Shown piece after piece: positions 11,141 through 64,000 of a stretch of 64,000 nt of DNA. The DNA lies in the NCBI GenBank assembly GCA_963832165.1, contig CAWHTE010000011.1:320001-384000 (forward strand). The letters are read 5' to 3'. Made by a program: the position numbers and the translations under genes. This DNA is from an uncultured delta proteobacterium. GTDB taxonomy: Bacteria > Myxococcota_A > UBA9160 > SMWR01. Each line of letters begins with the position of its first letter. Positions within the stretch are counted from its first letter, which is position 1. Under the pieces are notes generated by a model. The model was not told where the DNA came from. It saw nothing but the letters and a program-made list of their open reading frames with translations, and did no database searches.

Positions 11141-12551
11141 CTAGAGGATCTCCCGCACGTCGGCGACGGCGCCGCGGATCGCGGCCGCAGCGACCATCGC
11201 GGGCGACATGAGCAGCGTGCGCCCGGTCGGCGAGCCCTGGCGCCCCTTGAAGTTGCGGTTGGAGGACGACGCGCACAGCTCGCGCCCGACCAGCTTGTCG
11301 GGGTTCATCGCGAGACACATCGAGCAGCCCGGCTCGCGCCAATCGAAGCCCGCGCTGCGGAAGATCTCGGGCAGACCCTCCTCCTCGGCCTGTCGCTGCG
11401 ACCGCCTGCGAGCCCGGCACCACGAGCGCGCGCACGCCCGGCCGGACCTTGCCCGTGCGCGCGACGCGCGCGGCCTCGCGCAGGTCGCTGATCCGGCCGT
11501 TCGTGCACGAGCCGATGAAGCACACGTCCACGGCGGTGCCGACGAGCGGCTCGCCCGGGCGCAGCATCATGTAGCCGTACGCCTCTTCCGCGGACGCGCG
11601 CTCGTCGTCGGGGAGATCGGACAGGCGCGGCAGCGCCTCGTCGACGGCCACGCTCTGGCCCGGGTTGATGCCCCAGGTCACCGAAGGAGCGAGCCGCGCG
11701 CCGTCGAGCTCGACGCGGTCGGCATAATGCGCGCCGGAATCGGACGCCGTCGACTTCCACCAGCGCGCCGCGCGCTCGAACGCCTCGCCCTTCGGCGCGA
11801 ACTCCCGCCCGCGCAGGTACGCGACCGTGGTGTCGTCGGGATTCACGTAGCCGCAGCGCGCGCCGCCTTCGATCGACATGTTGCAGACGGTCAGGCGCTC
11901 CTCGATCGAGAACGCGTCGATCACGGGGCCCGCGTATTCGTACGCATAACCCACGCCGCCGTTTACGCCGAGCTCGCGGATGATCGAGAGGATCACGTCC
12001 TTGGCGTAGACACCCGCGGCGAGCTTGCCCGTCACCTCGATCCGGCGCGTCTTCGGGCGCACGAGCAGCAGGCATTGCGTGGCGAGCACGTCGCGCACCT
12101 GCGAGGTGCCGATACCGAATGCGACCGCGCCGAATGCGCCGTGCGTGGAGGTGTGGCTGTCGCCGCACGCGATCGTCATGCCGGGCTGGGTGAGGCCGAG
12201 CTCGGGCCCGATCACGTGCACGATCCCCTGGTGGCCCGACGCCGCGTCGAACAGCCGGATGCCGTTGCTGCGCGTGTTCTCTTCGAGCGCGACCATCATC
12301 TCTTCGGCGAGCGCGTCGGCGAGCGGGCGGCGCTGCGTGTGGGTCGGGATGATGTGGTCGACGGTGGCGAACGTGCGCTCGGGGAAGCGCACGGGAAGCT
12401 TCATCTCGCGCAATCCCGCGAAGGCCTGAGGGCTCGTGACCTCGTGGATCAGGTGCAGCCCGATGAACAGCTGCGTCTGGCCGGTCGGAAGCTCGCGCAC
12501 CGTGTGCGCGTCCCAGACCTTGTCGAGCAGGCTCTTGGCGGGGGGGGCCAT
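11141..12551 (-). CDS. leuC: 3-isopropylmalate dehydratase large subunit (frameshift near 11395, probably a sequencing error)
   Basis: [43 protein letters not shown]-terminus ([17 protein letters not shown]) in another frame. Confidence 0.93.
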
Positions 12552-12614
12552 CTGGTGACGGTTAGCACAGCGCGCCAGCGCTTCGGCGCTGCCGAATTTC
12601 CTATGCTGCGGCTC

Positions 12615-13280
12615 ATGGATCTCCTCTACACCGCACACATTCCGGCCGGCGACGGCCCGTTCCCGACGGTCTTCCTGCTGCACGGCTGGGGAGCGAGCGC
12701 GCACGATCTGATCGGCCTCGCGCCGATCCTGCACGGCGGGCGCGCGCTCGTGCTGTGTCCGCAGGGGCCGGTCGCTCTACAGCCCGGGCCCGGCATGATC
12801 GGATACGGCTGGTTCCCGCTCGAGCCGGGCCGCCCGCCCGATCCCACGGCGATCCGCATGGCGCAGGGCCTGCTCGAGATCTTCTTGAACGAGGCGTGTC
12901 AGAAGTATCCGGTCGACCCGAGCAAGCTCGTGCTCGCGGGCTTCTCGCAGGGCGGCTTCATGGCCTATCAGATCGCGCTCTCCGATCCCGCGCGCTTCGC
13001 GGGCCTCATGGCGCTCTCGTCGTGGCTGCCCGCCGAGATCGCGGAAATGATCGTGCCGCAGCCCGCGCACGAACGGCTCCAGACGCTCGTGATCCATGGC
13101 TCGAAGGATCCCATGGTGTCGATCGACCGCGCCTACGCCTCGCGCGATGCGCTCTTGCGCCTCCAGGTGCCGACCGTGTTCCGCGAGTACGAGATGGGGC
13201 ACGAGATCCGGCCCGAGGCGCTGCGCGAGATCGTCGGCTGGCTCGAGCAGAAGGTATTCTCGCCAGTCGCATTGGCCTGA
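12615..13280 (+). CDS. Phospholipase/carboxylesterase (alpha/beta hydrolase)
   Basis: [25 protein letters not shown]. Confidence 0.9.
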
Positions 13281-24169: not shown

Positions 24170-24334
24170 CTAGTCGATCGCCTCACCGATATCTTCACCC
24201 GCCTCTTCGACCGCGTCACCGGCGTCCTCCGCAGCGTCCTCGACCTTATCTCCGATGGTCTTCTCCCGCTGCGGACATCCCGCCAGCACGCCGATCACAC
24301 CGATCCCCGCCATCACCTTGATCCAGGATCTCAT
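24170..24334 (-). CDS. Small acidic lipoprotein, 54 aa (copy 1)
   Basis: MRSWIKVMAGIGVIGVLAGC-PQREKTIGDKVEDAAEDAGDAVEEAGEDIGEAID; lipobox LAGC; AGGAG RBS; not in the ORF track. Confidence 0.8.
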   Translation of the reverse strand: MRSWIKVMAGIGVIGVLAGCPQREKTIGDKVEDAAEDAGDAVEEAGEDIGEAID

Positions 24335-27234: not shown

Positions 27235-27399
27235 ATGAAATCCTGGATCAAGGTGATGGCGTTTATCGGCGTGATCGGTGTGGTGGCGGGATGTCCGCAG
27301 CGAGAGAACACCATCGGAGATAAGGTCGAGGACGCTGCTGAGGACGCCGGCGACGCGGTCGAAGAGGCGGGTGAAGATCTTGGTGAGGCGATCGACTAA
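27235..27399 (+). CDS. Small acidic lipoprotein, 54 aa (copy 2, inverted relative to copy 1)
   Basis: MKSWIKVMAFIGVIGVVAGC-PQRENTIGDKVEDAAEDAGDAVEEAGEDLGEAID. Confidence 0.8.
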   Translation: MKSWIKVMAFIGVIGVVAGCPQRENTIGDKVEDAAEDAGDAVEEAGEDLGEAID

Positions 27400-28809: not shown

Positions 28810-29661
28810 ATGGAATCGCTCGGTGTGACCCGGATCGTCCCGGCCCCGAGCTACACGGCTGTCGCCTGCCCCTCCGGGAACGCTCGCGGTGGGGTGGAGC
28901 AGAGGCGGCTCGAAGCAGACCGCGAGCAACTCCTCGAGATCGCTCTGCGCGCGGTTGCCGAGGCGCAAGCGTCGAGTCGCTCCAAGGACGAGTTCCTGGC
29001 AATGCTCGGTCACGAGCTGCGCAACTCGCTGTCGACCGTCCGGAACGCGGTCGCCTGTGTCCGGCTCGACAGCAGACAGTCCGAGCGAGCGCTGGACATC
29101 GCATGGCGGCAGACGGAGCAGCTCGGTCGGCTGGTCGAAGACCTCCTCGACGTCACGCAGATCGCGCAGGGTTGCTTCCGACTGAACCGGCAACGGGTCG
29201 CTCTGATGGAGATCATCGAGCATGCCGTGGAGGCAATGCGCTTTCTCGTCGAGGACCGCGGTCACACGCTGTCTGTGTCGCCGCCACTCGAGCTCGTTCG
29301 CGTCGATGGCGATCCACGGCGCCTCGAGCAGATCGTCGTGAACCTGATCATCAACGCCGCGAAGTACACGGATCGCGGCGGACGCATCGAGCTGCTCGTG
29401 GAGCGCCACGGCGCCGAGGCTGTGGTTCGCGTCCGGGACAGCGGGATCGGGATCTCACCGGACTTGCTGCCGCGGATCTTCGACTTCTATGTCCGGGGCG
29501 AGCGCACACCCGATCACATGCAGGGTGGACTCGGCATCGGCCTCGCAGTGGTGCGAAGCCTGGTTGCGTTGCACGGCGGTCGGGTCGAGGCGCGCAGCGA
29601 GGGGCTCGGAAAGGGTGCGGAGTTCGTAGTGCGTCTACCCGCCGTCCCGACGGCGTCCTGA
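28810..29661 (+). CDS. Sensor-less histidine kinase (HisKA-HATPase), copy 1
   Basis: FLAMLGHELRN, NAAKYT, RDSGIGI, GGLGIGL. Confidence 0.85.
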   Translation: MESLGVTRIVPAPSYTAVACPSGNARGGVEQRRLEADREQLLEIALRAVAEAQASSRSKDEFLAMLGHELRNSLSTVRNAVACVRLDSRQSERALDIAWRQTEQLGRLVEDLLDVTQIAQGCFRLNRQRVALMEIIEHAVEAMRFLVEDRGHTLSVSPPLELVRVDGDPRRLEQIVVNLIINAAKYTDRGGRIELLVERHGAEAVVRVRDSGIGISPDLLPRIFDFYVRGERTPDHMQGGLGIGLAVVRSLVALHGGRVEARSEGLGKGAEFVVRLPAVPTAS

Positions 29662-30303: not shown

Positions 30304-30392
30304 GGTCGCGAATCCTCACTTCTGGTCCACGATCTCCGTGGTGTCGACGATATGAGGCGATCCCACATCGCAGTAGGTTCGAATCGGGAACA
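30304..30392 (+). repeat. Copy of the noncoding leader element
   Basis: Aligns with 55097-55185 and the reverse complement of 24365-24426. Confidence 0.75.
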
Positions 30393-30558
30393 TCGAACCT
30401 GATAGGAACGGGAGCACTGCCCGGAGCCGAGAACTCAGGGACTGTCGGAGGAGCGAATGCTGTCCGGAGCCGAGAACCGACCCGTGATCACGGCGGCTGG
30501 AGGCGCGAAGGCCGCCGGCGCTGCCGGGGTGGCGCTCGCCAACCCCAAAGGACGCATC

Positions 30559-30774
30559 ATGCCTGAAATCATCGCAGTCATCCTGGTGACGCTTTGGCTT
30601 CTGGGTCTCCTCTCGTCCTACATGATGGGGGGATACGTTCACGTTCTCCTCGGGATTGCCGTCGCAGTGGTGATGGTCCGCGTGATTCATGAGGAAGCGC
30701 TCGAGCCGTCCGATTTCCTCTGTATGCCGGACGACCCGAGAAGCTCTAACCCGAGCGTCACCGAGTGGAAGTGA
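30559..30774 (+). CDS. lmo0937/DUF5670-family small membrane protein
   Basis: IAVILVTLWLLG-SSYMMGGYVHVLL. Confidence 0.75.
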   Translation: MPEIIAVILVTLWLLGLLSSYMMGGYVHVLLGIAVAVVMVRVIHEEALEPSDFLCMPDDPRSSNPSVTEWK

Positions 30775-30936
30775 ATCGTCGCCCCTTCGGAATCCCCCTG
30801 ACGCCGATCAAGCCTCGGGGGCTCGCTGGGGTGCGGCTCGGCACAGTGGGACGCCAGAGTGGCAGAGCCACCCGGAGGTCGTGCGATGCCTGAGAACCGC
30901 CCCTCGCCGTCATGGCGATTGCGTCGCAAAGAGGAC

Positions 30937-31320
30937 GTGGCATCGACGCAACTTCACGAATCGGCCGACGCGCTGCGCGCCGAGACGCGCGAGATGCATC
31001 GCGCGTTGCGCTCCCTGATCGAGGAGCTCGACGCGGTCGACTGGTACGCGCAGCGTATAGACGCGAGCGACGACGCAGAGCTCGCCGCCGTTCTCGCGCA
31101 CAATCGCGACGAGGAGAAGGAGCACGCGTGCATGGTGCTCGAGTGGATCCGCCGCCACGACGCGAAACTCGACGAGTTCCTGAGGCGGTTCTTGTTCTCG
31201 GACGGCCCGATCGCGAATGACGAAGACGAGAGTGCCAGCGGCAACTCGCGCCGGAGCTCTAGAGAGAATGGGAGCCTGCGCATCGGGAGCCTGCGCGCGG
31301 CAGAAGCGGAGGCGGGATGA
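30937..31320 (+). CDS. Encapsulin-associated ferritin-like protein (Flp/EncFtn) with targeting peptide
   Basis: SLIEELDAVDWY-QR, HNRDEEKEH-LEWIRR; C-terminal GSLRIGSLR. Confidence 0.92.
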   Translation: MASTQLHESADALRAETREMHRALRSLIEELDAVDWYAQRIDASDDAELAAVLAHNRDEEKEHACMVLEWIRRHDAKLDEFLRRFLFSDGPIANDEDESASGNSRRSSRENGSLRIGSLRAAEAEAG

Positions 31321-32138
31321 TCGGTCTGAACCGCGAGCTCGCGCCGATCAGTGAAGGCGGCTGGGCGCGCATCGAGCAGGAGGCGCGCAACGTCCTGCAT
31401 CTGCACCTCGCCGCGCGGCGTCTCGTCGACTTCGAGGGCCCGCTCGGCTGGGAGCACTCCGCGGTCGATCTCGGGCGCGTGGAGCCGCTCGCGGGCTTCG
31501 AGCGCTCGAGAGCCTCGTTTCGCCGGCGAGTCGTGCGGCCGATGATCGAGTTGCGGGTTCCCTTCGAGCTCGAACGCTCGGAGCTCGAGCGGATCGATCG
31601 CGGCGCGGCGAGCGTCGACCTCGATGCGCTGCGCGACGCCGCGCGAATGTTTGCCGCCGCCGAAGATTCTGCGCTGTTCGACGGTCACGAGGAAGCGGAC
31701 ATCCCCGGGCTGATCAGCGGCGCCGCGAATCCGGGCGTCGCGCTCCCGGCCGACCCGGCCCTGCTGCCCGGCGCCGTGGGCGAAGCGCTCGAACAGCTGC
31801 GCCAGGCGGGCGTCGGCGGCCCGTACGGTGTGGCGCTCGGCCCGACGGCGTTCGCCTCGCTCTCGCGCACTGTCGGCGACGGTGGCTATCCGGTCATGAA
31901 GCACCTCCGGCAGCTGATCGATCGCCCGGTGGTCTGGGCTCCGTCGCTGGCCGGCGGGATCGCGGTGAGCCTGCGCGGCGGCGACTTCAAGCTGATCTGC
32001 GGCCGAGACGCCGCGATCGGATATCTGAGCCACGACGAGAAACAGGTCCGCCTCTATCTCGAGGAGAGCTTCAGCGCCGAGCTGACCGGTCCCGAAGCGG
32101 CGGTGCCGCTGCTCTCCGCGAAGAACGGCGACGAATAA
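31317..32138 (+). CDS. Family 1 encapsulin shell protein (Linocin M18 family)
   Basis: LNRELAPIS-W-IE-AR, RRLVDFEGPLG, ELRVPFEL, AEDSALFDG, G-D-IGY, LYLEESF. Confidence 0.93.
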   Translation: MIGLNRELAPISEGGWARIEQEARNVLHLHLAARRLVDFEGPLGWEHSAVDLGRVEPLAGFERSRASFRRRVVRPMIELRVPFELERSELERIDRGAASVDLDALRDAARMFAAAEDSALFDGHEEADIPGLISGAANPGVALPADPALLPGAVGEALEQLRQAGVGGPYGVALGPTAFASLSRTVGDGGYPVMKHLRQLIDRPVVWAPSLAGGIAVSLRGGDFKLICGRDAAIGYLSHDEKQVRLYLEESFSAELTGPEAAVPLLSAKNGDE

Positions 32139-32170
32139 CTAGCGCTCGTCGAGAAGATGGGGAGAGCATC

Positions 32171-32899
32171 ATGAAGTTCGAAATACCTCCGCTGCCGTAT
32201 CCCAAGAACGCGCTGGCGCCGTTCATCGGCGCCGAGACCGTGGAGCTGCACTATGAGAAGCACCACAAGGGCTATCTCGAGAAGCTGAACAAGCTAGTGC
32301 GCGGCGAGCCCGAAGCGGCGCAGAGCCTCGAGGAGCTGATTCAAACCGCGCGCGGCGACGTGTTCAACAACGCGGCGCAGTTGTGGAACCACAACTTCTA
32401 TTGGCTGAGCCTCCAACCGGGCGGCGGAGGCGAGCCGGTCGCGGATCTCGCGAAGCAGGTCGACGAGTCGTTCGGATCCTATGCCGGCTTCCGCGCGCAG
32501 TTCGCCGAGGCCGCGATTGGAGAATTCGGATCGGGGTGGACGTGGCTGGTAAAGGGCGTCGGCGGGCGGCTGCTCGTGTGCAACAGCAACGACGCCGAGA
32601 ATCCGCTGCAGCGCGACCTCGTGCCGCTCGTGACGCTCGACGTCTGGGAGCACGCCTACTACCTGGACTACCGAAACGAACGCAAGCGCTACGTCGAAAA
32701 ATTCCTCGATAACCTGCTCAGTTGGGACTTCGTCGCGACCAATCTGACGCTGGCGCCTCCGGCCGATGAGGGCCTGGACATCCAGGGCGAGGGCAACCCG
32801 GAAGCGGATGCGCGCTATCGCGCGGGAGCGACGGCATTCGCGAAATCGAGTCGCATGAAGCCGGCGGCCAAGCGGGCCGCGCGCTCGCTGCGCAGTTGA
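32171..32899 (+). CDS. sodB: Fe superoxide dismutase with a ~45-aa C-terminal extension
   Basis: HYEKHH, NNAAQLWNHNFYW (Fe-type AAQ), FGSGW, DVWEHAYY. Confidence 0.9.
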   Translation: MKFEIPPLPYPKNALAPFIGAETVELHYEKHHKGYLEKLNKLVRGEPEAAQSLEELIQTARGDVFNNAAQLWNHNFYWLSLQPGGGGEPVADLAKQVDESFGSYAGFRAQFAEAAIGEFGSGWTWLVKGVGGRLLVCNSNDAENPLQRDLVPLVTLDVWEHAYYLDYRNERKRYVEKFLDNLLSWDFVATNLTLAPPADEGLDIQGEGNPEADARYRAGATAFAKSSRMKPAAKRAARSLRS

Positions 32900-36453: not shown

Positions 36454-36500
36454 TTCCCCCGGATCTCGGGATACCAACGGTCTCCCGCTCCGAGTAGGGT
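36454..36500 (+). promoter_or_regulatory. Island box + -10-like hexamer
   Basis: TTCCCC-CG-GATC-TC-GGGATA (36454-36473), 21 nt, TAGGGT. Confidence 0.7.
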
Positions 36501-41030: not shown

Positions 41031-41077
41031 ACGCTAGTCGGGCAGAAAGGGCGCGGATATCCATGGATCCATGGGTA
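41031..41077 (-). promoter_or_regulatory. Island box + -10-like hexamer (BON gene)
   Basis: TATCCA-TG-GATC-CA-TGGGTA (41058-41077), 21 nt, TAGCGT on the minus strand. Confidence 0.72.
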
Positions 41078-43306: not shown

Positions 43307-43354
43307 ACGCTAGTCCGGTTGGGGAGACAGCCAGTATCCCCGGATCCGGGTATT
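43307..43354 (-). promoter_or_regulatory. Island box + -10-like hexamer (ECF sigma)
   Basis: TATCCC-CG-GATC-CG-GGTATT (43335-43354), 22 nt, TAGCGT; region near-duplicated at 45199-45252. Confidence 0.72.
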
Positions 43355-44089: not shown

Positions 44090-44136
44090 ACCCTACGCCG
44101 AAGGCGAGACCGCCGGTATCCCGGGATCCACGGGAA
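44090..44136 (-). promoter_or_regulatory. Island box + -10-like hexamer (collagen-OmpA)
   Basis: TATCCC-GG-GATC-CA-CGGGAA (44117-44136), 21 nt, TAGGGT. Confidence 0.68.
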
Positions 44137-45199: not shown

Positions 45200-45246
45200 A
45201 CGCTAGTTCGGTTGGGGAACGGCCAGTATCCGCGGATCCGGGTATA
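45200..45246 (-). promoter_or_regulatory. Island box + -10-like hexamer
   Basis: TATCCG-CG-GATC-CG-GGTATA (45227-45246), 21 nt, TAGCGT. Confidence 0.72.
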
Positions 45247-48038: not shown

Positions 48039-48085
48039 AAGCTAGTCGCGCACGAAACGCGTCGATATCCACGGATCCGGGGGTA
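48039..48085 (-). promoter_or_regulatory. Island box + -10-like hexamer (glycine zipper-csbD operon)
   Basis: TATCCA-CG-GATC-CG-GGGGTA (48066-48085), 21 nt, TAGCTT. Confidence 0.7.
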
Positions 48086-48489: not shown

Positions 48490-48509
48490 TTTCCCGGGAT
48501 CTGTGGATG
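48490..48509. promoter_or_regulatory. Island 20-bp box
   Basis: TTTCCC-GG-GATC-TG-TGGATG. Confidence 0.6.
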
Positions 48510-48565
48510 GACCACCCAGCACCCGCTTTGCCACGCTCTCGCCGCTCGGGACGGGAACCCGGAGT

Positions 48566-49016
48566 GATGGACCAGGGGGTGGCGATGAGCGAGTGGGCGG
48601 GCCTCAGCGTAGGCTTCTTCGGCGGGGCGCGAGCGAGCCGTCGATCTCGGATCCATGGTAGGCGCATCCTCTATGTCGACGACGAGCTCTCGATGCGGCT
48701 CGCGGTGGCGCGCGTGCTGCGCGGCGCTGGCGCGGTCTGTCTCGGCTCCGCTACTCACGACCAGGCCGTCGTGCTGCTCGCGTTCGAACCCCGCGTCGAC
48801 TTGGCGATTCTCGATTTTCAGATGCCAGACGGCGACGTGGGCCGTCTGGTGAAACGCCTGCACTGGCAGCGCTCCGCTCTGCCGCTGGTGGGGACGAGCG
48901 GTTCGGATCAGCGCGCCGAGTTCGCCGCGCGGGGAGTCGACCGCTTCCTGCCGAAGCCCTGGGCGCTCGATGATCTGATCCGCGTCGCGGATTGGTCGGA
49001 AGTGCCTGTCAGTTGA
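48566..49016 (+). CDS. Single-domain response regulator
   Basis: ILYVDDE, ILDFQMP, TSG, LPKPW; start uncertain. Confidence 0.8.
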
Positions 49017-49092
49017 ATGCCACGTCTCCGGCGAGTGAAATCCCGCCGTTCCGCGAATCGAGCTGGATCGAATCCACACCTTCCACGCGCGA

Positions 49093-49140
49093 TCTACCGG
49101 GATCTGGGGATACTCGCGATCCTTCCTTCTACGGTAGTGT
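49093..49140 (+). promoter_or_regulatory. Island box + -10-like hexamer (cheBR operon)
   Basis: TCTACC-GG-GATC-TG-GGGATA (49093-49112), 22 nt, TAGTGT. Confidence 0.62.
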
Positions 49141-49267
49141 GGGTAATTCCCTCTCCGGGGGCAGGCGGCTTTGACGCAGCGAAGCCTGCTCGTGGCGGCG
49201 GATCTTTTGATTGCACGGGGAGCTGGCACCCGGCCCGTCCGTTCAGCCCAACAGCAAGAGTGTCACC

Positions 49268-52200
49268 ATGGCCGGCAAGAGAGGTACGACTCGCGCCCCG
49301 CGAATCTCCGGCAGGAAGCGAAAACCTGCCCCCCAGAAGGCGAGTGAGGGCGCGCCGAAGCAGCCCGGTTCGGGCCCCGTTTTCACCGGGTCCGTTTCGG
49401 CGCGCGCACCGGACACGGGGCCTCTGATCGTCGGAGTTGGAGGTTCGGCCGGTTCGCTCTCGCCGCTGCGCGAGTTCCTTGCAGCGATCCCCGCGGACTG
49501 CGGCATCGCATTCGTCGTCGTGAGCCACCAGGCCTCCGCGGGTCACAGCTTGCTCCCTGGGATCCTCGCGAAGTGCACCGAGATGACGGTGCGCGAGATC
49601 GGCGAGGAGACCCGCGTCGAACCGAATCACGTCTACGTCGAGTCGCACGGGCACCCTGTGGCGATTCGAGGCGGGATGTTGAGCCTCGAGCCGATCGCCG
49701 TGCGCAGCGTTCCGCATCTGCCGATCGATCTGTTCTTCCGCGCGCTCGCCCGCGATCAGGGGCGCCACGCCGCCGGCATCGTGCTCTCCGGAACCGGAAC
49801 CGATGGCACGCTGGGTCTCGCAGCGATCCGCGCAGCATCCGGCCTCTCCCTGGTGCAGGATCCCGCGACCGCCGAGTTCGATGGAATGCCGGTCAGCGCT
49901 ATCCAAGCACACGCAGCGGACTTCGTCCTATCGCCGGCGGAAATGCGAGCGCGCCTGCTCGTCCATCGGGATGGGCTCGCCTCGCTGGCGCGCCCAGACG
50001 GCGCGCCCGAGTTCGCAAGCAGCGAGATCGAGAGGGTCCTCGCGGTGATGCGCCATCGCGCAGGCCGCGATTTCTCCGAATACAAGCACGCAACGCTGGC
50101 TCGCCGCATCGCGCGGAGAATGCATCTCCGCGGTATCGACGGCGTGGAGGCGTACGCGCGTTTCCTGGATCAGAGCGACGCCGAGGTCGATGCCCTCTGG
50201 CATGACTGGCTGATCGGGGTCAGCAGCTTTTTTCGCGACCCGGAAGTCTTCCAGGCACTGGAGGCCGCGCTTCCGGACCTGCTCGCCGGGCGCGAAGACG
50301 GCTCTCCGCTGCGGATCTGGGTCCCGGGTTGTGCGACCGGTGAAGAGGCCTATTCACTCGTCATCGTCCTGCTCGAGGTCCTGACAAGGCTGGAGATGCA
50401 CCTGGAAGTGCAGGTGTTCGCTACGGACCTCAACCCCGCAGCGATCCAGGTCGCCCGTGCGGGGCGCTATGCCGAGGGCATCGCGGTGGATGTCGGCGAA
50501 CAGCGCCTCGACCGGTTCTTCTCGAGAGAAGGCGAGCTCCATCGCGTCAAGAAGGAGGTGCGCGATCTCGTGGTCTTCGCGGTTCAAGACGCCCTGCGCG
50601 ACCCGCCCTTTACCCGCGTAGATCTCGTGTCGTGCCGGAACTTCCTGATCTATTTGGAGCCCAGCGCGCAGCGGCGCCTGTTCGGGTCCTTCCACTACAG
50701 CCTGACTCCTGGAGGACTGCTTCTGCTCGGTTCATCCGAGAGCGTCACCGGCTCCGAGTCGTTCTTCGCGCCGCTCGACGGACATTGCAAGATCTTCCGG
50801 CGCAACGACGCTACCGCGCGGCAGCCGACGTTGCGCTTTCCGGCAACACACGGCGCGTACCTAGACGCTGCGGCGGGCGCTCCCTCCGTCGGTGCAAAGA
50901 CCGATCTGGCAAGCCCGCTGCGCAGGGCGCTGGCGGAGCGCTTCGGTCCGCCGGCCGTGCTCGTCGACGAGCGGGGACAGATCCAGCAGATCCATGGGCG
51001 CGTGGGTGCCTACCTCGAGCTGCCAGCGGGGCGAGTCAACGTGAACATCGTCGACATGGCGAGGGAAGGTCTCCGGGCACCGCTTGCCTCGGCGCTTCGC
51101 GAGGCGATCGAAACGGATGGCCAGGTCGCAGAGCGAAGCGTCCGCGTTCTCGTCGAAGGAGACCGGCTCGCGTTGCATGTGAAAGTGGCGCGGCTGCTCG
51201 AGCCGGGCCTCGTGCCACGGCTGTTCCTCGTCTCGTTCGAGCCGGCGGAACGCGGCGCACGGCAGCGCGCGCGGAAGAGCGAGCCGATCGCCGGGGCACG
51301 CAGGGGTCGAGGCGGGGTGAAGCTGGAGGAGGAGCTCCGGAATACGCGGAACGACCTACAAGGCAGCATCGACGAGCTCCAGGCGGCGAACGAGGAGCTG
51401 GCCTCCGCGAACGAAGAAGCGCAATCGGCGAACGAGGAGCTTCAGAGCACGAACGAAGAGCTCCAGACTGCCAAGGAGGAGACGCAATCGCTCAACGAGG
51501 AGCTCCATACCGTGAATGCAGAGCTCACGGAGAAACTCGAAAACTTCCAGCGGGCGACCGACGACCTGCTGAATCTGATGAACAACATCGAGATCGCCAC
51601 CATCTTCCTGGACGAACAGCTGCGGGTGAAGCGCTTCACGCCGCAGGCGCGCAATGTCGCGCGCCTGATCGACGCCGATATCGGGCGTCCGCTGGCCGAC
51701 CTGGCCACAGTCCTCGACTACCCCGACCTTCTGTCGGACGCGGCGAGCGTGATCGAGACCCTTCACGCTTCGGAGACGCAGGCGGCCGCTCCCGGCGGAA
51801 GCTGGTACCTCGTGCGAATCCGGCCCTATCGCACCGCGCGAAACACCGCCCAGGGCGTCGTCATAACATTCGTCGACATCACGGATGCGAAGCGCACTGA
51901 ACGCCTCCAGGCGGCGCGCGTGCTGGCGGAGAGCATCGTGGATGCGGTGCGCGAGCCCTTCCTGGTCCTGGACGGCAGGCTGCGCGTCGTGCGGGCGAAC
52001 CGCGCCTACTACCGGGCGTTCAGGGTCGAGCCGGAGCAGACCGACGGCCGGCTGATTGGAGAGCTCGGAAGTCAGCAGTGGAGCATCCCGATGCTGCGCG
52101 AGCGCCTGGAGAAGGCCCTGCAAGAGGGCACCGGCTTCGACGACTTCGAAGTGGAGCGTGAGTTTCCCCACCTCGGACGACGCAGGATGCTGTTGAACGC

Positions 52201-52312
52201 TCGACCGTTGTCGCCCGAGGATGGCACGGCCGCCGAGCTCGTCTTGCTCGGGATCCAGGAGCTCGGTGGGTCGCAGGCGGAGACGCCGAGAAGCGAGGGA
52301 GGGCGCCAATGA
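49268..52312 (+). CDS. CheB-CheR fusion with coiled coil and PAS domains (CheBR)
   Basis: CheB GGSAG/SH/SGTGTDG; CheR SFFRD, PGCATGEEAYS, SCRN; NEELQS heptads; PAS domains; no kinase domain. Confidence 0.92.
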   Translation: MAGKRGTTRAPRISGRKRKPAPQKASEGAPKQPGSGPVFTGSVSARAPDTGPLIVGVGGSAGSLSPLREFLAAIPADCGIAFVVVSHQASAGHSLLPGILAKCTEMTVREIGEETRVEPNHVYVESHGHPVAIRGGMLSLEPIAVRSVPHLPIDLFFRALARDQGRHAAGIVLSGTGTDGTLGLAAIRAASGLSLVQDPATAEFDGMPVSAIQAHAADFVLSPAEMRARLLVHRDGLASLARPDGAPEFASSEIERVLAVMRHRAGRDFSEYKHATLARRIARRMHLRGIDGVEAYARFLDQSDAEVDALWHDWLIGVSSFFRDPEVFQALEAALPDLLAGREDGSPLRIWVPGCATGEEAYSLVIVLLEVLTRLEMHLEVQVFATDLNPAAIQVARAGRYAEGIAVDVGEQRLDRFFSREGELHRVKKEVRDLVVFAVQDALRDPPFTRVDLVSCRNFLIYLEPSAQRRLFGSFHYSLTPGGLLLLGSSESVTGSESFFAPLDGHCKIFRRNDATARQPTLRFPATHGAYLDAAAGAPSVGAKTDLASPLRRALAERFGPPAVLVDERGQIQQIHGRVGAYLELPAGRVNVNIVDMAREGLRAPLASALREAIETDGQVAERSVRVLVEGDRLALHVKVARLLEPGLVPRLFLVSFEPAERGARQRARKSEPIAGARRGRGGVKLEEELRNTRNDLQGSIDELQAANEELASANEEAQSANEELQSTNEELQTAKEETQSLNEELHTVNAELTEKLENFQRATDDLLNLMNNIEIATIFLDEQLRVKRFTPQARNVARLIDADIGRPLADLATVLDYPDLLSDAASVIETLHASETQAAAPGGSWYLVRIRPYRTARNTAQGVVITFVDITDAKRTERLQAARVLAESIVDAVREPFLVLDGRLRVVRANRAYYRAFRVEPEQTDGRLIGELGSQQWSIPMLRERLEKALQEGTGFDDFEVEREFPHLGRRRMLLNARPLSPEDGTAAELVLLGIQELGGSQAETPRSEGGRQ

Positions 52313-53539
52313 GCTCCAGGAGCCACAGATCGCGGCCGCCCGACTCGCTCCGCGTGCTCGCCGATCAGCGGATGGCGGAGACAGCACCCGTCGATCTGGA
52401 GCGCCTCACGCCGAACGAGATCCAGGCCCTCATCTATGAGCTGGAGCTTCACAAGATCGAGTTGAAGATCCAGAACGAGCAGCTCTGGGAGGCGCAGCGA
52501 GCGACAGAGGTATCCAACGAGCGCTTTCGCCGTCTCTACGATGCGGCTCCGACCGGCTACCTGACGCTCGATTTCGACGGGATGATCGTCGAGGCGAACC
52601 TATCTATTTCCGTCATCCTGAAGACTTCGCGCCAACACCTGATCGGGAGAAAGCTTTCGGAGTTCGTCGTTGCGAATTGCCAGGATCGCTGGCATCTCGC
52701 GCGGCGTGATCTGATCGAGGGCCGGACGCGCAAGGATCTCATGCTGGAGATCGCGCCGGCCGACGGAAGTGCTGTCGACCTCCAGATCGTGGGCACGTCG
52801 GCGGCCGCTACCGAAGCCACGCCGAGAGAGATCCATCTCGTTCTGATCGACGTGACGGAGCAGCACAGGACGGAGCGCGCGTTGCAGGCTGCCGTGGTGG
52901 CGGCGACCCTGGCCGAAGAGAGGGAGCGCCGCAAGCTGGCGGCAGATCTGCACGACGACGCCGGCCAGCTGCTCTCGCTAGCGTCGCTCAAGCTGAACGC
53001 GTTAGGCGAAGCCCGCGAGGTGGAGCGGGGTGCCCGGATGGCCGAGCTGGAGGATCTGCTCGTGGTGATCCGCCGCCGGATCTCTTCGCTGAGCTTCCAG
53101 CTGAGCCCTCCGCTGCTTCACGATGTCGGGCTGATCGCGGCCCTCCAGTGGCTCGCAGAGGATCTGGAGGCCAGCCATGGCCTCTCGGTGAAGATCATCG
53201 AGGAGCATGAGTTGGACCTCGATGAGAACTCGCGCGTCACGTTCTACCGGGCGATTCGCGAGCTGCTCCTCAACGTGGTGAAGCACTCAGGTGTCAAGGA
53301 GACCCGCATCCGGGTGTCACGGGAGGGAGCGATGGCGCGGATTGCCGTGGAGGACGGTGGTGTCGGTATGCCCCCGAGAGCCAAGCGCCCGCGGCTTCGG
53401 ACTGCTGGCGCTGCGCGAGCGAGTGGAGCAGCTGGGCGGGTCGCTCGAAACCCGCAGCACTCCGGGCAGCGGAACCACGGTCGTGGTCAGCCTTCCGATC
53501 CGTCTCTCCCTACCCAACCTCGAAGGGGGTGCAAGATGA
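52309..53539 (+). CDS. PAS + HisKA_3 (NarX/UhpB-type) histidine kinase (frameshift near 53390)
   Basis: ELELHKIEL-QNEQL, ERERRKLAADLHD, NVVKHS, EDGGVG; GFGLLALRERV in the alternate frame. Confidence 0.88.
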
Positions 53540-54183
53540 TGACCCGTATTCTGCTCGTGGACGATCATGAGTTGATGCGCGAGGGATTGCGCTCGATTCT
53601 CGAGGGCGAAGCCAACGTCGAGATCGTCGGCGAAGCCTCGAGCGGCCGCGAGGCCGTGGTGCTCTCGCGCACGCTCGAACCGGACGTGGTGGTCATGGAC
53701 GTGGGCATGAGCGATCTGAACGGAATCGATGCCACCCTGCAGATTCGACGCGAGTTCCCCGACGTCCAGGTGATTGCACTCTCGAGCCATTCGGACAGCC
53801 GCTATGTGAGTGCCATACTCGAGGCGGGCGCATGCGGCTACGTGCTCAAGGCGAACGCCTACGCCGACCTTCGCAAAGCGCTGCAAGCTGCCCGGCAGGG
53901 GAAGAACTACCTCTGCGCGGAGGTCACGAAGGGGGTGGTGGACGCCTCCCTCCACGGACCTCGGAACGGAGTCGACCCGTCCGTGCTCTCCCCGCGCGAG
54001 AGAGAGGTTCTGCAGCTGCTGGCCGAAGGCCAGAGCTCTCCGCGGATCGGGAAGCGCCTGTTCATCGCCACCAGCACGGTCGAGACCCACCGGCGCAGCA
54101 TCATGCGCAAACTCGAGATCCACAGCGTCGCGGATTTGACGAAGTGGGCGATTCGCGAAGGGCTGACTCAACTCGAAGCGTGA
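53536..54183 (+). CDS. NarL/FixJ-family response regulator (REC + LuxR-type HTH)
   Basis: LVDDH, VMDV, YVLK, LSPREREVL...TVETHRRSIMRKL. Confidence 0.93.
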   Translation: MMTRILLVDDHELMREGLRSILEGEANVEIVGEASSGREAVVLSRTLEPDVVVMDVGMSDLNGIDATLQIRREFPDVQVIALSSHSDSRYVSAILEAGACGYVLKANAYADLRKALQAARQGKNYLCAEVTKGVVDASLHGPRNGVDPSVLSPREREVLQLLAEGQSSPRIGKRLFIATSTVETHRRSIMRKLEIHSVADLTKWAIREGLTQLEA

Positions 54184-54226: not shown

Positions 54227-54246
54227 TATCCGCAGATCCGGGGATA
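54227..54246. promoter_or_regulatory. Island 20-bp box upstream of orphan kinase 2
   Basis: TATCCG-CA-GATC-CG-GGGATA. Confidence 0.68.
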
Positions 54247-54305: not shown

Positions 54306-55091
54306 ATGACCGCTTTCGATGTCACGACGCAGATCGTCCCGGCGGACGGCTACATGGCGCTCAGCGCTCCCGCGCAGCGCGCGAATGCCGAGCTCCAGGC
54401 GTCGACGCGCTCCAAGGACGAGTTCCTGGCGATGCTCGGTCACGAGCTGCGCGGCTCGCTGTCGGCCGTCCGGAACGCAGTCGCCTGGGTCCGGCTCGAC
54501 AGCAGATCCGAGCGAGCCCTCGACATCGCGTGGCGGCAGACGGAGCGGCTCAATCGGCTGATCGAAGACCTCCTCGACGTCACGCAGATCGCGCAGGGTT
54601 GCTTCCGGCTGAACACGCAGCGTGTCGCTCTAATGGAGATCATCGCGCACGCGGTGGAGACGACGCGTTTCATCGTCGAGGATCGCGGTCACACGCTGAC
54701 GGTGTCGCTGCCGGCCGACAGCGTGCGCGTCGATGGCGATCCACTGCGCCTCGAGCAGATCGTCGTGAATTTGGTCAGCAACGCCGCGAAGTACACGGAG
54801 CCTGGCGGATGTATCGAGCTGATCGTGGAGCGCCACGACGCGGAGGCCGTGGTTCGGGTCCGGGACAGCGGGATCGGGATCTCGCCGGACATGCTGCCGA
54901 GGATCTTCGACCTCTTTGTCCAGGAGAAGCGCACGCTCGAGCACGCGCAGGCTGGGCTCGGCATCGGGCTCGCGGTGGTGCGAAGCCTCGTCGCGCTGCA
55001 CGACGGTCGGGTCGAGGCTCGCAGCGAGGGGCTCGGGAAGGGAGCGGAGTTCGTCGTGCATCTGCCCGCCGTCGCTGACAGTGGAATCTGA
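54306..55091 (+). CDS. Sensor-less histidine kinase, copy 2 (paralog of 28810-29661)
   Basis: FLAMLGHELRG, NAAKYT, RDSGIGI; long near-identical DNA stretches shared with copy 1. Confidence 0.85.
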   Translation: MTAFDVTTQIVPADGYMALSAPAQRANAELQASTRSKDEFLAMLGHELRGSLSAVRNAVAWVRLDSRSERALDIAWRQTERLNRLIEDLLDVTQIAQGCFRLNTQRVALMEIIAHAVETTRFIVEDRGHTLTVSLPADSVRVDGDPLRLEQIVVNLVSNAAKYTEPGGCIELIVERHDAEAVVRVRDSGIGISPDMLPRIFDLFVQEKRTLEHAQAGLGIGLAVVRSLVALHDGRVEARSEGLGKGAEFVVHLPAVADSGI

Positions 55092-55096
55092 AGTGG

Positions 55097-55185
55097 GGTC
55101 GCGAATCCTCGGCTTTGATCCGCGTTCTCCGTGGGATCGACGATGGGAGCGGGTCTCGCATCGCGGTAGGTTCGAATCGGGAACA
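55097..55185 (+). repeat. Copy of the noncoding leader element
   Basis: Aligns with 30304-30392, including GTAGGTTCGAATCGGGAACA. Confidence 0.75.
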
Positions 55186-55202
55186 GGTCCGAGGGACGAA
55201 GC

Positions 55203-55290
55203 ATGTTCGAAACGATCGCAATCGATCTGGCGGTCTTGTGGCTTTTGAGTCGTCTCCTCTTCCGCAATCGATATTCACGTTCTCGTCGTG
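55203..55290 (+). pseudogene. Degenerate lmo0937/DUF5670-like copy
   Basis: MFETIAIDLAVLWLL then loses frame; ATTCACGTTCTC is shared with the intact copies. Confidence 0.5.
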
Positions 55291-55363
55291 ATCTGCCCTC
55301 ATCGCGCTCAACGGATGTGACCCGCTGAAATCGGAGGGGGGTTCACAATCGAAAGGACACAGC

Positions 55364-55519
55364 ATGCTCGAAACCATCGCAATCATCCTGGTGGCCCTGT
55401 GGCTTCTGGGCTTCGTCTCGTCCTACACGATGGGAGGATTCATTCACGCCCTGCTCGTGCTTGCCGTCGTGGTGATCGCGGTCCGCGTGATTCAAGGACG
55501 ACGCATCACCCTCACGTGA
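55364..55519 (+). CDS. lmo0937/DUF5670-family small membrane protein (51 aa)
   Basis: [55 protein letters not shown]. Confidence 0.85.
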   Translation: MLETIAIILVALWLLGFVSSYTMGGFIHALLVLAVVVIAVRVIQGRRITLT

Positions 55520-58689: not shown

Positions 58690-61211
58690 GCCGGACCTCC
58701 ACCCGTCGCTTTGCGCTGGCGCTGCGCCACCGCGTGAACGAGGTAGGCGTGATTGAGCACGTCGGCGAGCGCGGGAAGCGCAGCGACGCAGGTGGAGAGC
58801 AGCGCGTCGAGCCGCGTGCGGCGCCCGGGTGCGTCCGCGCTCGTCGAGACCTCCACGAGCGCGTCGAGCGGTACCGATCGCAGGTGATCGCGCAGATCGC
58901 TGAGGTCGCGGCGCGGCGCGCGCGGCAGCCCGCGGAAGCGGCTCTCGAGCTGCTCGAGCTGGAACGCGAGCGAGCGCGGATTCGCTTCGTCGAGGAGAAG
59001 GAGGTCGATCACGAGCGGGACCTCGAGCGCGGTCTGGTAGCGCGAGCGGTAGGTCATCGCGCTGTCGGCCACCTCGAGCACGTTGCCGAGCCGCCGCGGC
59101 TCGTCCTCCGCGAGCTCGACCAGGCCGTGGCGCAGCAGGGCCACGATCTGGATCCCGCGTTCGAGGCGCCGCCCGATGTCGAGGAACTGCCAGCCGAGGC
59201 CGCGCGTCATGCTCTCCATCGCGATGCCCGTGAACGCCGCGAGGCGCGCGATCGCACCATCGAGCTCGCCGATCGCCTCGGACACGCGAAGCGCCGGGTG
59301 GGTGTCGGGCTCGATGAAGTCCTGCTCGAGGCGCGCGAGCGTGCGCCACGCATCCGGGGAGATGCGGTCCCGCAACAGCCACGCGATCCGGTGCAGTGCG
59401 GCCACCGCGCCGCCGACGCTCTCGATTCGCCCGCGGTCGAACAGCGCCGCGAGCGCGCGTGTCTCGAGGCCCGCGTCGGCGCTCTCCTCGGGTCCGTCCT
59501 CGTCGGGCTCGAGCACGCCCGGCAGCATGCGCTCGAGCAGCACGAGTGCGTCGGGCAGCGGCGCATCGACCGCGCGCAGCGGCTCCTCGGCGAGCCGCCG
59601 CAGAGCGCAGCGGAACAGCCGCGCTCCCGCGTCGGCGCGCTCGCTCATGCGGCCGAGCCAGAACAGGTTGTCGGCGACGCGGCTCGTGAGTGCGAAGCTC
59701 GCGCGCGAGACGTCGCTCGGGCGCGTCACCCGGTCGATCAGCGACGTGTAGGGCACGGGCCCGTCGGCCAGCACCCAGGTGTCCTTGCTGCCGCCGCCGC
59801 GCTGACTCGACACGACGAGGCTGTCGGGTGACGGCGACACGCGCGTGAGGCCGCCCGGCATCAGCACGTAGCCGTCGCCGCTGCGCACGGCGTAGACGCG
59901 CAGCACGAGGTGGCGCGGAGTCGCTCCCTCGACGCCGCCGCCCGTGGGCACCGTCGACAGCGCCACGCGCTCCTGCGCCATGAAACCGTATGGATTCGCA
60001 CGAATCCGATCCGCCAAAGCGGTCCGCTCCTCGGCGGAGAGCTCCTCGCCGAACACCACCTCCGCGCGCGGCGACGGAAACGTCGGCTTGAGCACGAGCT
60101 CCTCGAGGTGCTCGATCACGTACTCGCGCTCGGCGGGCTGGCCGCACCACCAGGTGGCCACCGAGGGCATCAGCAGCTCCTCGCCGAGCAGCGCGCGGCA
60201 CAGGCTCGGCAGGAACGCCATCGTGGCCGCCGTCTCGACGAGCCCGCTGCCGAGCGCGTTCGCCACCGCGACGTTCCCGGCGCGCACCGCCTGCGTGAGC
60301 CCGGGCGTGCCGAGCGCGGACTCGCCGAACAGCTCGAGCGGATCGCAGAACGCGTCGTCCTGGCGCCGCAGGATCACGTGCACGGGCAGGAGCCCCGAGA
60401 GCGTCTTCAGATAGACGCGATCGTCGCGCACGGTGAGGTCGCCGCCCTCGACGAGCGTCACGCCCAGGTAGCGCGCGAGATAGGCGTGCTCGAAGTAGGT
60501 CTCGTTGTACGGCCCCGGCGTGAGCAGCACGATGCGCGGCGTGCCGCGCGTGGGCGCGAGCGCCATCAGCGTGTCGCGGAACGACTGGAAGAAGCCCGCG
60601 AGCCGTTGCACGTGGAAGTCGCGGAACGCCTCGGGCAGGATGCGCGACATCACGATCCGATTCTCGAGCGCATAGCCCGCGCCCGACGGAGCCTGCGCGC
60701 GGTCGGCGATCACCCACCACTGGCCGTTCGGCGAGCGCGCGAGGTCGGCCGCGAACGCGTGCAGGTGACACTGGCCCGGCACGCTCATGCCGTGACACGG
60801 CCGCAGGAAGCCCGGGTTGCCGTACACGAGCTCGGGCGGCAGCAGAGCCTCGTGCAGCAGGCGTTGCGGGCCGTAGAGATCGCCGAGCATCCGATCGAGC
60901 AGCAGCGCGCGCTGCGAGATCGCCTTCTCGATGCCCGCCCACTCCTCGGACGAGATCAGCAGCGGAATCGGATCGAGCTGCCACGGGCGGTCGATTCCGC
61001 GCGGGTCGCCGTACACGTTGTAGGTGACGCCGTTCTCCTCGATCAGCCGCTGTCCCTCGCGCCAGCGGCGGAACAGCTCTTCGGCGCCGAGCCGCTGCAG
61101 CGCCGCGACCAGCTCGCGCCAATGCGGGCGCAGCTCGCCGGAGGGCATCGTCATCTCGTCGAAGTGCCCCGAGACCGCGGCGTACTCGAGCTCGGCCGGC
61201 GCGGTGCTCAA
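58686..61211 (-). CDS. Circularly permuted type-2 ATP-grasp + alpha-E fusion
   Basis: [47 protein letters not shown]; alpha-[24 protein letters not shown]. Confidence 0.9.
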
Positions 61212-64000
61212 GCGGGCTCCCAGCGCAGGTCGAGCGTCATCGCGTGTTGCGGATTGTGCTCGGGCGGCGGCACCGCGACCGCACCCGGCGTATGTCCGAA
61301 CGGCGCGAAGCGCTCGCGGCGGCGCGCCTCCGCCTCGTTCGCGTTCACGGGGAACTTGTCGTAGCTGCGTCCGCCCGGGTGCGCGACGTGATAGGTGCAG
61401 CCGCCGAGCGACCGCCCGGACGCGGTGTCGATCACGTCGAACACGAGCGGCGCGTGGACCGGAATGGTCGGGTGCAGTGCGGAGGGCGGCTGCCACGCGC
61501 GGTAGCGCACGCCCGCGACGTACTCGCCCGCCACCCCGGTGGGGTGGAGCGGGAGCCGGCGGCCGTTGCACGCGAGCACGGTGCGCTCGGAGAGCAGTCC
61601 GCACACGCGCACCTGGAGGCGTTCCACCGAGGAGTCCACGTACCGCACGGTACCACCGGCGCCGGGCTCCTCGCCGAGCACGTGCCAGGGCTCGATCGCG
61701 TGGCGCAGCTCGATCTCGATCCCGCGCGGCGCCACCGTGCCGATCTTCGGGAAGCGGAACTCGAAGTGCGTGTCGAACCACGCGCGCTCGAACGCATACC
61801 CCGCGCGCGCGAGCTCCTCGAGCACGAGCCGGAAGTCGTCGTCGATGAAGTGCGGCAAAAGGAAGCGGTCGTGCAGCAGATCGCCCCAGCGCGCCGGGCG
61901 CTCGCGATAGGGCTCGCGCCAGAAGCGCGCCACGAGTGCGCGCACGAGCAGCTGCTGCGCGAGGCTCATGCGCGCGTGCGGCGGCATCTCGAACGCGCGC
62001 ATCTCCACGAGACCGAGGCGTCCGGTCGCGCTCTCGGGTGCGTAGAGCTTGTCGATGCAGAATTCGGAGCGATGCGTGTTGCCCGTGACGTCGGCGAGCA
62101 GGTGGCGGAACACGCGGTCGACGAGCCACGGCGGGCAGTGACCCTCGCCCGGCATCGGCACCTGTTGGAACGCGATCTCGAGCTCGTAGACGGCGTCGCT
62201 GCGCGCCTCGTCCACGCGCGGCGCCTGGCTCGTGGGGCCCACGAAGAGTCCCGAGAAGAGATAGGAGAGCGAGGGATGATTCAACCAGTAGGCGACGAAG
62301 CTGCGCAGCAGGTCCGGGCGGCGCAGGAACGGACTGTCCGCGGGTGACGGTCCGCCCAGCACGACATGATTGCCGCCGCCGGTTCCGGAATGGCGGCCGT
62401 CGAGCATGAACTTCTCGGTCGACAGGCGCAGCGCGCGGGCGTCGGCGTAGAGCTGCGTGGTCTCGTCGGCGAGCTCGCGCCAGCTCGCGGCGGGCCGCAC
62501 GTTCACCTCGAGCACGCCGGGATCGGGCGTGACGCTCATCTTCTCGATGCGCGGATCGAACGGCATCGGATAGCCCTCGAGCACGACGGCCGTGCCGAGC
62601 GCGTGCCGCGGTGTCCTCGATCGCGCTCGCCAGATCGAGATAGTCGTCGGCGCTCGCGAGCGGCGGCATGAACACGTGAATGTGTCCGTCGCGCACTTCC
62701 ACGCACAGCGCGGTGCGCACGATCCCGTCGGCGCCGACCGCACCCGGCGCTCGCGAGCGGGGCTGCGCCGCGCGCGCTGCGCTGCGCCCGCCCGAGGGCA
62801 GCGGGCCGCGGTCGGCGAGCGGGTCGACCGGCCAGACGCGGCGCCGCACTTCCTGCCGCTCCCACGGCAAGCTCTCGATCGGGAGCCGGAACCCGATCGG
62901 CGAATCGCCCGGGGTCAGCACGATGTGGCGCGCGCGCAGCATCCAGAGTCCGCTCTGCCACGCGGGCCCGCGCGGGCCGCGACGCGCGCTCGAGCGGAAG
63001 CACGGCGCCCGCCGGTGTCGCGAGGCCGCGCTCGAGCAGGCGGCGCAGCCGTGCGCGCTCTTCGGGCTCGTCGAGGCTGCGGTCGGCCGGATCGACGTTT
63101 GCGGGCAGCTTGCCCTCGGTGCGCAGGGCCTCCCAGGGGTCTTCGTACGCGGGCACGACGTGGTCGGGATCCACCTCGAGGCGCAGTGCGAGCTCGCGCG
63201 CGAAGCGGTCGGCGTCGTCGGGTGTGCCGCTGCCCGGGTGCGCCGTGTCGGCGAAGAGCTTCGGATCGCGCCAGATCGGCACGCCGTCGCGGCGCCACCA
63301 GCACGTGAGCGCCCAGCGCGGCAGCGGCTCGTCCGGATACCACTTGCCCTGGCCGAAGTGGAGCAGCCCACCCGGCGCGAGCCGGTCGGTGATCCGGCGC
63401 AGCAGCCCCTCGCCGAGCTGCCGCTTGCGCGGTCCGAGCGCAGCGTATGTCCATTCCGTGCCGTCCATGTCGTCGGCCGCGACGAACGTGGGCTCGCCGC
63501 CCATCGTGAGGCGCACGTCGCTCTGCACGAGGTCCGCGTCGACCTGCTCGCCGAGTTCATCGATGCGCGCCCAGGTCGCGTCGTCGTAGGGCCGGGTGAC
63601 GCGCGGGTCTTCGCGCACGCGCTCGACGTGCATCTCGAACTCGAACTCCACGCCGCAGTCCTCGACGCCGCCCGAGAGCGGCGCGGCCGACGCCGGATCC
63701 GGCGCGGCGGCGAGCGGGATGTGGCCTTCGGCCGCGAGCATGCCCGACGTCGGGTCGAGGCCGACCCAGCCCGCGCCCGGGAGATAGGCCTCGGCCCACG
63801 CGTGCAGGTCGGTGAAGTCGCGCTCCGGTCCCGCGGCGCCTTCGAGCGGCGGCTCGTCGGGCTGGAGCTGGATCAGATATCCCGACACGAAGCGCGCCGC
63901 GAGGCCGAGGTGGCGCAACATCTGCACGAGCAGCCACGCGCTGTCGCGGCACGAGCCCGCGCGAAGCTCGAGCGTCTCCTCCGCGGTCTGCACACCGGGC
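61208..64000 (-). CDS. Transglutaminase + DUF2126 putative amidoligase (5'-truncated; frameshifts near 62990 and 62600)
   Basis: [55 protein letters not shown]. Confidence 0.88.

Follow-up and report, generated by a model that had tools for sequence, protein, structure and literature searches.

What does a fused CheB-CheR protein act on, and which genes does its activity finally control? Such fusions number thousands, and a missing read-out is one obstacle to answering this question. Here, we analyzed a stretch of 64,000 nucleotides (the window; positions 320001-384000 of contig C11) from the assembly of an uncultured delta proteobacterium (5.5 Mb, 11 contigs, 89% complete, 69% GC). It contains an operon in which a CheB-CheR-PAS protein (CheBR) is followed by a HisKA_3 kinase and a NarL/FixJ-family regulator, preceded by a 20-bp palindromic box. 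We see about an even chance that the heptad helix of CheBR, the separate kinase and the regulator form a box-driven general-stress switch, in which self-methylation of CheBR tunes the kinase. The step from the regulator to the box-bearing promoters is well supported by sequence, while we infer the methylation of the helix and its relay to the kinase. As judged from sequence, the new part is the output, i.e. the box, the promoter layout and the predicted targets; the sensor class is already known.

The main box (positions 49093..49112 of the window, without assigned strand; consensus TATCCCnGGATCCnGGGATA) is followed after 22 nt by a -10 hexamer, TAGTGT, on the plus strand (49135..49140). This confirms the arrangement proposed by an earlier reading that used the sequence only, and if the hexamer is correctly placed, the box is centered at about -44.5. 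A weaker copy (AATCC...TTCC in the consensus of 34 oriented sites; 49071..49090, plus strand) starts 22 bp before the main box and is likely a second site for the regulator. The window contains 14 matches to the box versus 0.13 expected (0 of 100 shuffles); one match, at 49553, has a low score and lies within a gene. Two further, paralogous copies of the operon are present on C7 and C4, and 21 of the 22 sites of the genome that score at least 20 bits fall within 70 kb around the three operons, with 0 sites in the reversed genome; this count is partly circular because 21 sites of the same genome served to train the matrix. A TANNNT hexamer at exactly +21/+22 is found in 11/22 of these sites and in 15/30 sites of relatives (background 0.0023), and among the sites with a hexamer, an upstream A[ACT]TC motif accompanies 11/11 and 10/15, respectively. 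If the hexamer is set at -12 to -7, the box center is placed at -43.5/-44.5, the position given for the Escherichia coli NarL sites at yeaR and ogt in the accessible part of PMC10853779. The predicted promoter geometry fits a NarL-type activator. The GATACT at the end of the box was also considered as a -10 hexamer and was rejected, as it is a half-site. The box has GATC at its center, which varies less than the rest of the spacer; that adenine methylation might influence the predicted binding is a thought only.

Which protein reads the box can be approached by comparing genomes. Using the regulator, loci were identified in other genomes and in metagenome contigs, and because a strict box pattern separated genomes poorly (61/193 matched, with 0 matches in several regulator-bearing genomes), they were scored with the matrix, defining a strong site by at least 16 bits. 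Two loci of the own genome and two duplicate contigs (L035 and L036) were dropped before counting. In the first set, 8 of 13 loci with a regulator at least 59% identical to that of the window carry a strong site, versus 3 of 151 loci below this cut, which was set after seeing the data. A later set of 15 genomes of the order, picked by regulator identity, served as a test: nine carry the site, one of them duplicating an earlier locus, versus 1/5 at 53-57% identity. Pooled without duplicates, 16/27 close loci contain a strong site compared with the 3/151 distant ones, counts that overstate the association as kin loci are not independent. The co-occurrence of box and operon that had been suggested as a check is thus observed, and it is the regulator clade that the box follows. 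Regulators above the cut share a helix close to ATSTVETHRR. Since the box is missing from five more distant CheBR-kinase-NarL operons at 52-56% identity (L026, L027, L037, L123 and L140) and from a fused CheB-CheR-kinase gene on C11, and is present at two loci devoid of CheBR, these comparisons indicate that it follows the regulator and not CheBR. It is likely that the regulator binds the box and activates transcription from it. How boxes spread is suggested by a duplicated fragment in G190 (L253:8738-8889), which consists of the 3' end of a regulator gene and its downstream box.

On the input side, CheBR (49268..52312, plus strand; ATG at 49268, stop at 52312) is a 1014 amino acid, MAC1-like protein with the order CheB-CheR-(PAS-like)-coiled coil-PAS-PAS. 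It matches the Pfam families CheB_methylest, CheR_N, CheR, PAS_10 and PAS_4; its CheB and CheR domains are additionally backed by matches to PDB sequences and folds, with solved CheR chains aligning to the CheR part. Ser60, His87 and Asp179 of CheB and Arg323 and Asp387 of CheR, which we take to be the catalytic residues, are present together with the TGEEAYS and CRN motifs and are conserved among the best 120 of 7040 homologs, in agreement with the intact motifs claimed before. Proteins of this type are abundant, accounting for 7040 of 8000 scored candidates, and homologs are labelled 'two-component system CheB/CheR fusion protein' in the database. Pfam detected no receiver, HisKA or HATPase domain in the chain, and because a kinase domain is missing from it, CheBR and its kinase are, by domain content, a split MAC1-like system in which the sensor and the kinase are two polypeptides. 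For comparison with the split form, the contig itself offers C11:444845-448573 (L004:4845-8573), which encodes a canonical fused CheB-CheR-coil-PAS-HisKA-HATPase-receiver protein of 1242 amino acids without a box nearby.

Profiles for chemoreceptors, CheW and CheA had no match within the window, as had been stated earlier. The genome encodes four chemoreceptors, which carry Glu-pair motifs, eight CheW-domain matches and three CheA dimerisation domains; the closest chemoreceptor is located on the same contig at a distance of about 176 kb, and two other CheR matches of the stand-alone type adjoin chemotaxis genes. The absence of chemoreceptors was rejected as an argument at the genome level, as it applies to only 1 of 31 genomes with the coil, i.e. 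G028 (94% complete), which has the operon and no chemoreceptor.

The Glu/Gln heptad tract reported for CheBR is indeed present at residues 705-753 (51380..51526, plus strand) and constitutes a candidate methyl-accepting helix. It contains four heptad-spaced EExx[AST][AST] motifs, none of which fits the strict EExxA[ST] form. The helix is the best-conserved part of CheBR, above either enzyme domain: among 120 homologs, 41/81 columns of residues 685-765 are at least 95% identical, versus 49/176 for CheB and 64/185 for CheR. Residues 686-773 form one helix in the predicted structure; the AlphaFold model is confident for the domains, not for their arrangement (pTM 0.35), and is uninformative on CheR reaching the coil. 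Methylation had been proposed for the CheBR heptads or for the ELELHKIEL coil of the kinase. The former remain the best methyl-acceptor candidate, while the latter is an unlikely acceptor because EExx[AST][AST] is missing from it here and in 46 of 49 homologs. We lean towards methylation of the heptads by the CheR domain of CheBR itself, in cis or between the chains of a dimer, which is the standing MAC hypothesis already in print and not new.

A possible route from the helix to the kinase is offered by the N-terminal helix of the kinase, which is found in 22/24 HisKA_3 kinases behind a heptad coil versus 4/77 without a coil (loci with 4 kb upstream readable; mostly kin). A helix that travels with CheBR suits a docking role, and the chance that the methylation signal reaches the kinase through it appears to be slightly below even.

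The kinase gene (52309..53539, plus strand) encodes the N-terminal helix followed by PAS, HisKA_3 and HATPase domains and contains the H-box His, the N-box and the G1 box (DLHDDAGQ, ELLLNVVKH and DGGVG). ATGA stop/start overlaps connect it to CheBR (52309-52312) and to the response regulator (53539 being the last base of the overlap that starts at 53536). The NarL/FixJ-family regulator (53536..54183, plus strand) has an intact frame with a receiver and a LuxR-type helix-turn-helix domain (PF00072 and PF00196), shows the acidic pocket, phospho-Asp and Lys of the receiver as DD, VMDVG and LKA, and scores under every NCBIfam equivalog cut-off. By sequence, all parts of the operon look cytoplasmic. 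Of the three coupled genes described previously, both overlaps stand, but the sequence as it stands has two open frames, the kinase reading into the regulator. An extra base (+1 insertion) near 53388-53391 shifts the kinase between the G1 and G2 boxes; its missing tail (GFGLLALRERVEQ...) and the G2 box lie in the +1 frame, and the tail ends on the regulator start. The window kinase lacks a complete ATP-binding domain with G2 in frame; both paralogs and the relatives have G2 in frame. As read from this assembly, the window kinase cannot form a complete ATP-binding domain. At the break, the C7 paralog and two genomes of the same genus are each one base shorter, and the difference between the window and relatives at this position exceeds a clean one-base insertion. 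Concerning reads of the same strain, no run shared more than 0.13 of words, and identical 151-base pieces from a comparison of eight runs missed the break. The intact, 81%-identical C7 kinase could stand in, or the break could be an assembly error. In intact copies, the adjacent kinase very probably phosphorylates the regulator.

In the proposed mechanism, a signal would shift the balance of CheR and CheB activity on the own helix of CheBR, and the helix together with the PAS domains would pass the methylation state to the partner kinase. The phosphorylated regulator would then activate the box promoters of general-stress genes and, in some lineages, also its own promoter. A more far-reaching version, in which the split MAC1 system serves as general-stress input with a methylation memory on the CheBR helix, docking on the kinase helix and a threshold for the NarL-driven regulon, is tentative and rather unlikely to hold in full. 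If true, a MAC system would for the first time have a mapped output, and stress adaptation would proceed by receptor-free protein methylation.

Several observations weigh against a box-driven switch that is tuned by CheBR. All three operon copies of the genome are frame-broken. The -10 hexamer is present in 7 and missing in 6 of the 13 strong window boxes, the half-site spacing is unlike the 7-2-7 arrangement of NarL, and the sites are not independent because some are copies with shared flanks (43335/45227 and 41058/48066). A strong site is lacking in 11/27 close loci, several of which are short, and the box does not depend on CheBR, since G142 and G151 have kinase, regulator and box without it. 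Among the 31 genomes with the coil, 30 also have chemoreceptors. Autoregulation, which had been claimed for the operon, agrees with the box ahead of the window operon but is patchy: a box within 800 bp upstream of CheB occurs in 6/15 relatives at a threshold of at least 13 bits and in 2/15 at 16 bits or more, and by this measure it is not general across relatives.

These points also bear on the competing explanations. Regulator and box could form a stress switch in which CheBR is only co-regulated or signals elsewhere, with the kinase sensing via its own PAS domain. The CheBR-less loci G142 and G151, the occurrence of the N-terminal kinase helix without an upstream coil in 5/29 cases and the position of CheBR itself behind the box would agree with this, but the stop-start overlap, the fixed CheBR-kinase-regulator order in 5/5 other families of the order with a long locus and the lack of an own output domain in CheBR argue against it, and we consider such a bystander role unlikely. 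Even less probable is that another protein reads the box, either an extracytoplasmic function (ECF) sigma factor or an unlinked activator, so that its link to the operon merely reflects a shared island history. The operon is patchy (coil in 31/193 genomes of the order) and the GC content at third codon positions (GC3) of the island genes is lower (0.81-0.88 vs 0.85-0.94), as if both had been co-travelling. However, a 20-bp palindrome just upstream of the -35 region with a TAnnnT -10 is activator-like, and in four genomes with the box, the best matches to the ECF factor of the island reach 39-45%, none of them a close ortholog. In G036, which belongs to another family, sites with the same spacing are distributed over at least eight contigs and not confined to one island, and the box is located right behind the regulator gene in 7/24 cases (at least 13 bits). 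Of similarly low, if not slightly lower, probability is the methylation of a different substrate by CheBR, such as the kinase coil, the regulator or the chemoreceptors of the cell. Four chemoreceptors with Glu-pair motifs are available in the genome, and methylation of a response regulator by CheR is reported in the accessible part of PMC8546571; on the other side, the kinase N-terminus almost always lacks the motif (46/49 homologs), the two stand-alone-type CheR proteins are encoded beside the chemotaxis genes and CheBR has its own near-invariant motif array.

Two further explanations concern the frame breaks. The frame from 52309 runs over 624 codons and is open across the junction, joining the truncated kinase to the regulator, but that this read-through is a real, functional fusion protein is extremely improbable: it has no G2 box, GC3 collapses beyond 53389 over the shifted stretch, 49/49 close kinase homologs are free-standing proteins of 358-441 amino acids, and the extra base is missing from eight related contigs, derived from 4 of 8 runs examined. 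The fusion was already unlikely, and no other genome with it was found. More weight, though clearly less than an even chance, is given to a decay of the system in this strain, with real breaks and a circuit that is either dead or complemented by intact parts from different copies. The breaks affect the last PAS domain of CheBR and the regulator on C7, CheBR on C4 and the kinase in the window, i.e. four breaks in three operons versus 0.78 expected (P ~0.008; background 6 per 37,575 codons, in 5 of 97 control genes). Decay would also agree with the window break being more than a clean insertion and with a fourth, fragmentary operon copy at the start of C7 (L001:1-2900), whose kinase, regulator and downstream kinase genes are interrupted by several frame breaks and which is followed by a weak box. 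Nonetheless, near-identical paralogs (86% nucleotide identity) can confuse assembly, and the same genes are broken in three other few-contig assemblies (G169, G178 and G098). The four breaks may stem from redundant copies that decay or from local problems of the assembly. Decay is compatible with the CheBR-tuned switch as the best explanation. Every component is encoded intact at some place in the genome; the complementing set would consist of CheBR and regulator of the window and the kinase of C7 or C4. The term 'master switch' used in the sequence-only reading was overstated, given three paralogous operons that share the box and are each frame-broken in the assembly.

The predicted targets in the window form two groups. 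Boxes with a -10 hexamer on the minus strand precede the genes for a glycine-rich small protein, a 103 amino acid protein, CsbD and a SagB-type nitroreductase (48066..48085), a 132 amino acid unknown protein and a BON-domain protein (45227..45246), an OmpA-domain protein (44117..44136), the ECF sigma factor and a phospholipase D-type protein (43335..43354), and a four-BON protein and an AI-2E family transporter (41058..41077); on the plus strand, such a box precedes small holin-X-like and YtxH-like genes (36454..36473). Boxes without a -10 at +21/+22, for which no strand is assigned, are located before a single-domain receiver gene (box 48490..48509; gene 48507-49016) and before a sensor-less HisKA kinase (54227..54246, 43 bp past the regulator stop). 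Between 22090 and 33218, four strong boxes without -10 (22090, 24466, 28697 and 33199, unstranded) and a weak one (26990) are followed by genes for a dehydrogenase, small membrane or lipoprotein-like proteins and a second sensor-less kinase. Of the targets that had been proposed for the regulator, the ECF factor and the stress genes have -10-bearing boxes; the boxes of the two extra kinases (28697 and 54227) and the receiver (48490) lack the hexamer. Stress genes lie within the locus in 13/21 long close loci versus 6/88 distant ones, in a search that used the window's own genes as queries and thereby favored kin.

The two HisKA kinases (28810-29661 and 54309-55091) are 65% identical and have almost no sensor region, and a receiver gene comes after the first; the similar gene of G006 encodes a single kinase-receiver chain and lies behind a box with -10. 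Near-identical 54 amino acid lipoprotein-like genes (24170-24334 and 27235-27399) are each found behind a box. Duplicated segments with a leader and a small DUF5670 membrane-protein gene (30304-30689 and 55097-55494, 81% identity) are an indication that local duplication occurred repeatedly in the island. The island also encodes consecutively an encapsulin-associated ferritin-like cargo, a family 1 encapsulin shell and an Fe superoxide dismutase (30859-32899), and C1 carries a shell and dismutase pair that is 81-88% identical. Elsewhere in the window, two genes are seemingly split across frames: one at 11141-12734, with a tail that presumably resembles isopropylmalate dehydratase, and a DUF2126 gene at 61208-63993, whose Pfam match begins at position 367 of 826.

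The proposed output would provide a handle on this class of proteins. With a three-gene unit of 5 kb that looks cytoplasmic and a promoter box, a reporter could test whether CheR/CheB activity and the heptad Glu residues alter expression, and the box points to a general-stress regulon that is run by an activator and not by a sigma factor. This is limited by the fact that both the sensor class and the idea of its methylation have been published, that the hosts are uncultured and that an intact kinase must come from a relative's copy. The MAC1 class was reportedly named by Wuichet and Zhulin in 2010. In the accessible parts of these sources, it is profiled in MiST 3.0 (PMC6943060) and was called experimentally uncharacterised in 2022 (bioRxiv 10.1101/2022.05.07.491037). 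A search of the open literature, in which the box sequence was not used as query, revealed neither experimental work on a MAC protein nor an account of the regulon, and the accessible parts of PMC2577667 and PMC11580852 contain nothing on CheBR fusions.

Compared with known systems, the operon resembles MAC1 proteins in joining CheB and CheR to PAS domains and to a coil whose Glu pairs are candidate methyl acceptors, but differs by its separate HisKA_3 kinase with a conserved N-terminal helix and by the NarL-type regulator next in line, for which a DNA box can be defined. General stress regulons, such as those of RpoS and SigB, typically include BON, small membrane-protein and lipoprotein genes. 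In contrast to these regulons, the shared element is an activator-type palindrome and not the -35/-10 pair of a sigma factor. A further likeness is csbD, a listed target of the alphaproteobacterial EcfG regulon in the accessible part of PMC7083833. The Che3-CrdS/CrdA system of Myxococcus xanthus, as far as described in the accessible part of PMC3147164, likewise ties CheB/CheR homologs to a kinase and a transcription regulator, but this type uses chemoreceptors, CheA and CheW, all of which are missing from the operon here, where CheB also lacks a receiver domain. With E. coli NarX/NarL (class II-type promoters, yeaR/ogt; accessible part of PMC10853779), the operon has in common a HisKA_3 kinase, a NarL-family regulator and a palindrome at -43.5/-44.5. 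It differs in having a 20-bp GATC-centered site instead of the 7-2-7 site of NarL, a second, weak site 22 bp upstream instead of at -77.5, and a cytoplasmic kinase that would be connected to stress genes and not to nitrate respiration.

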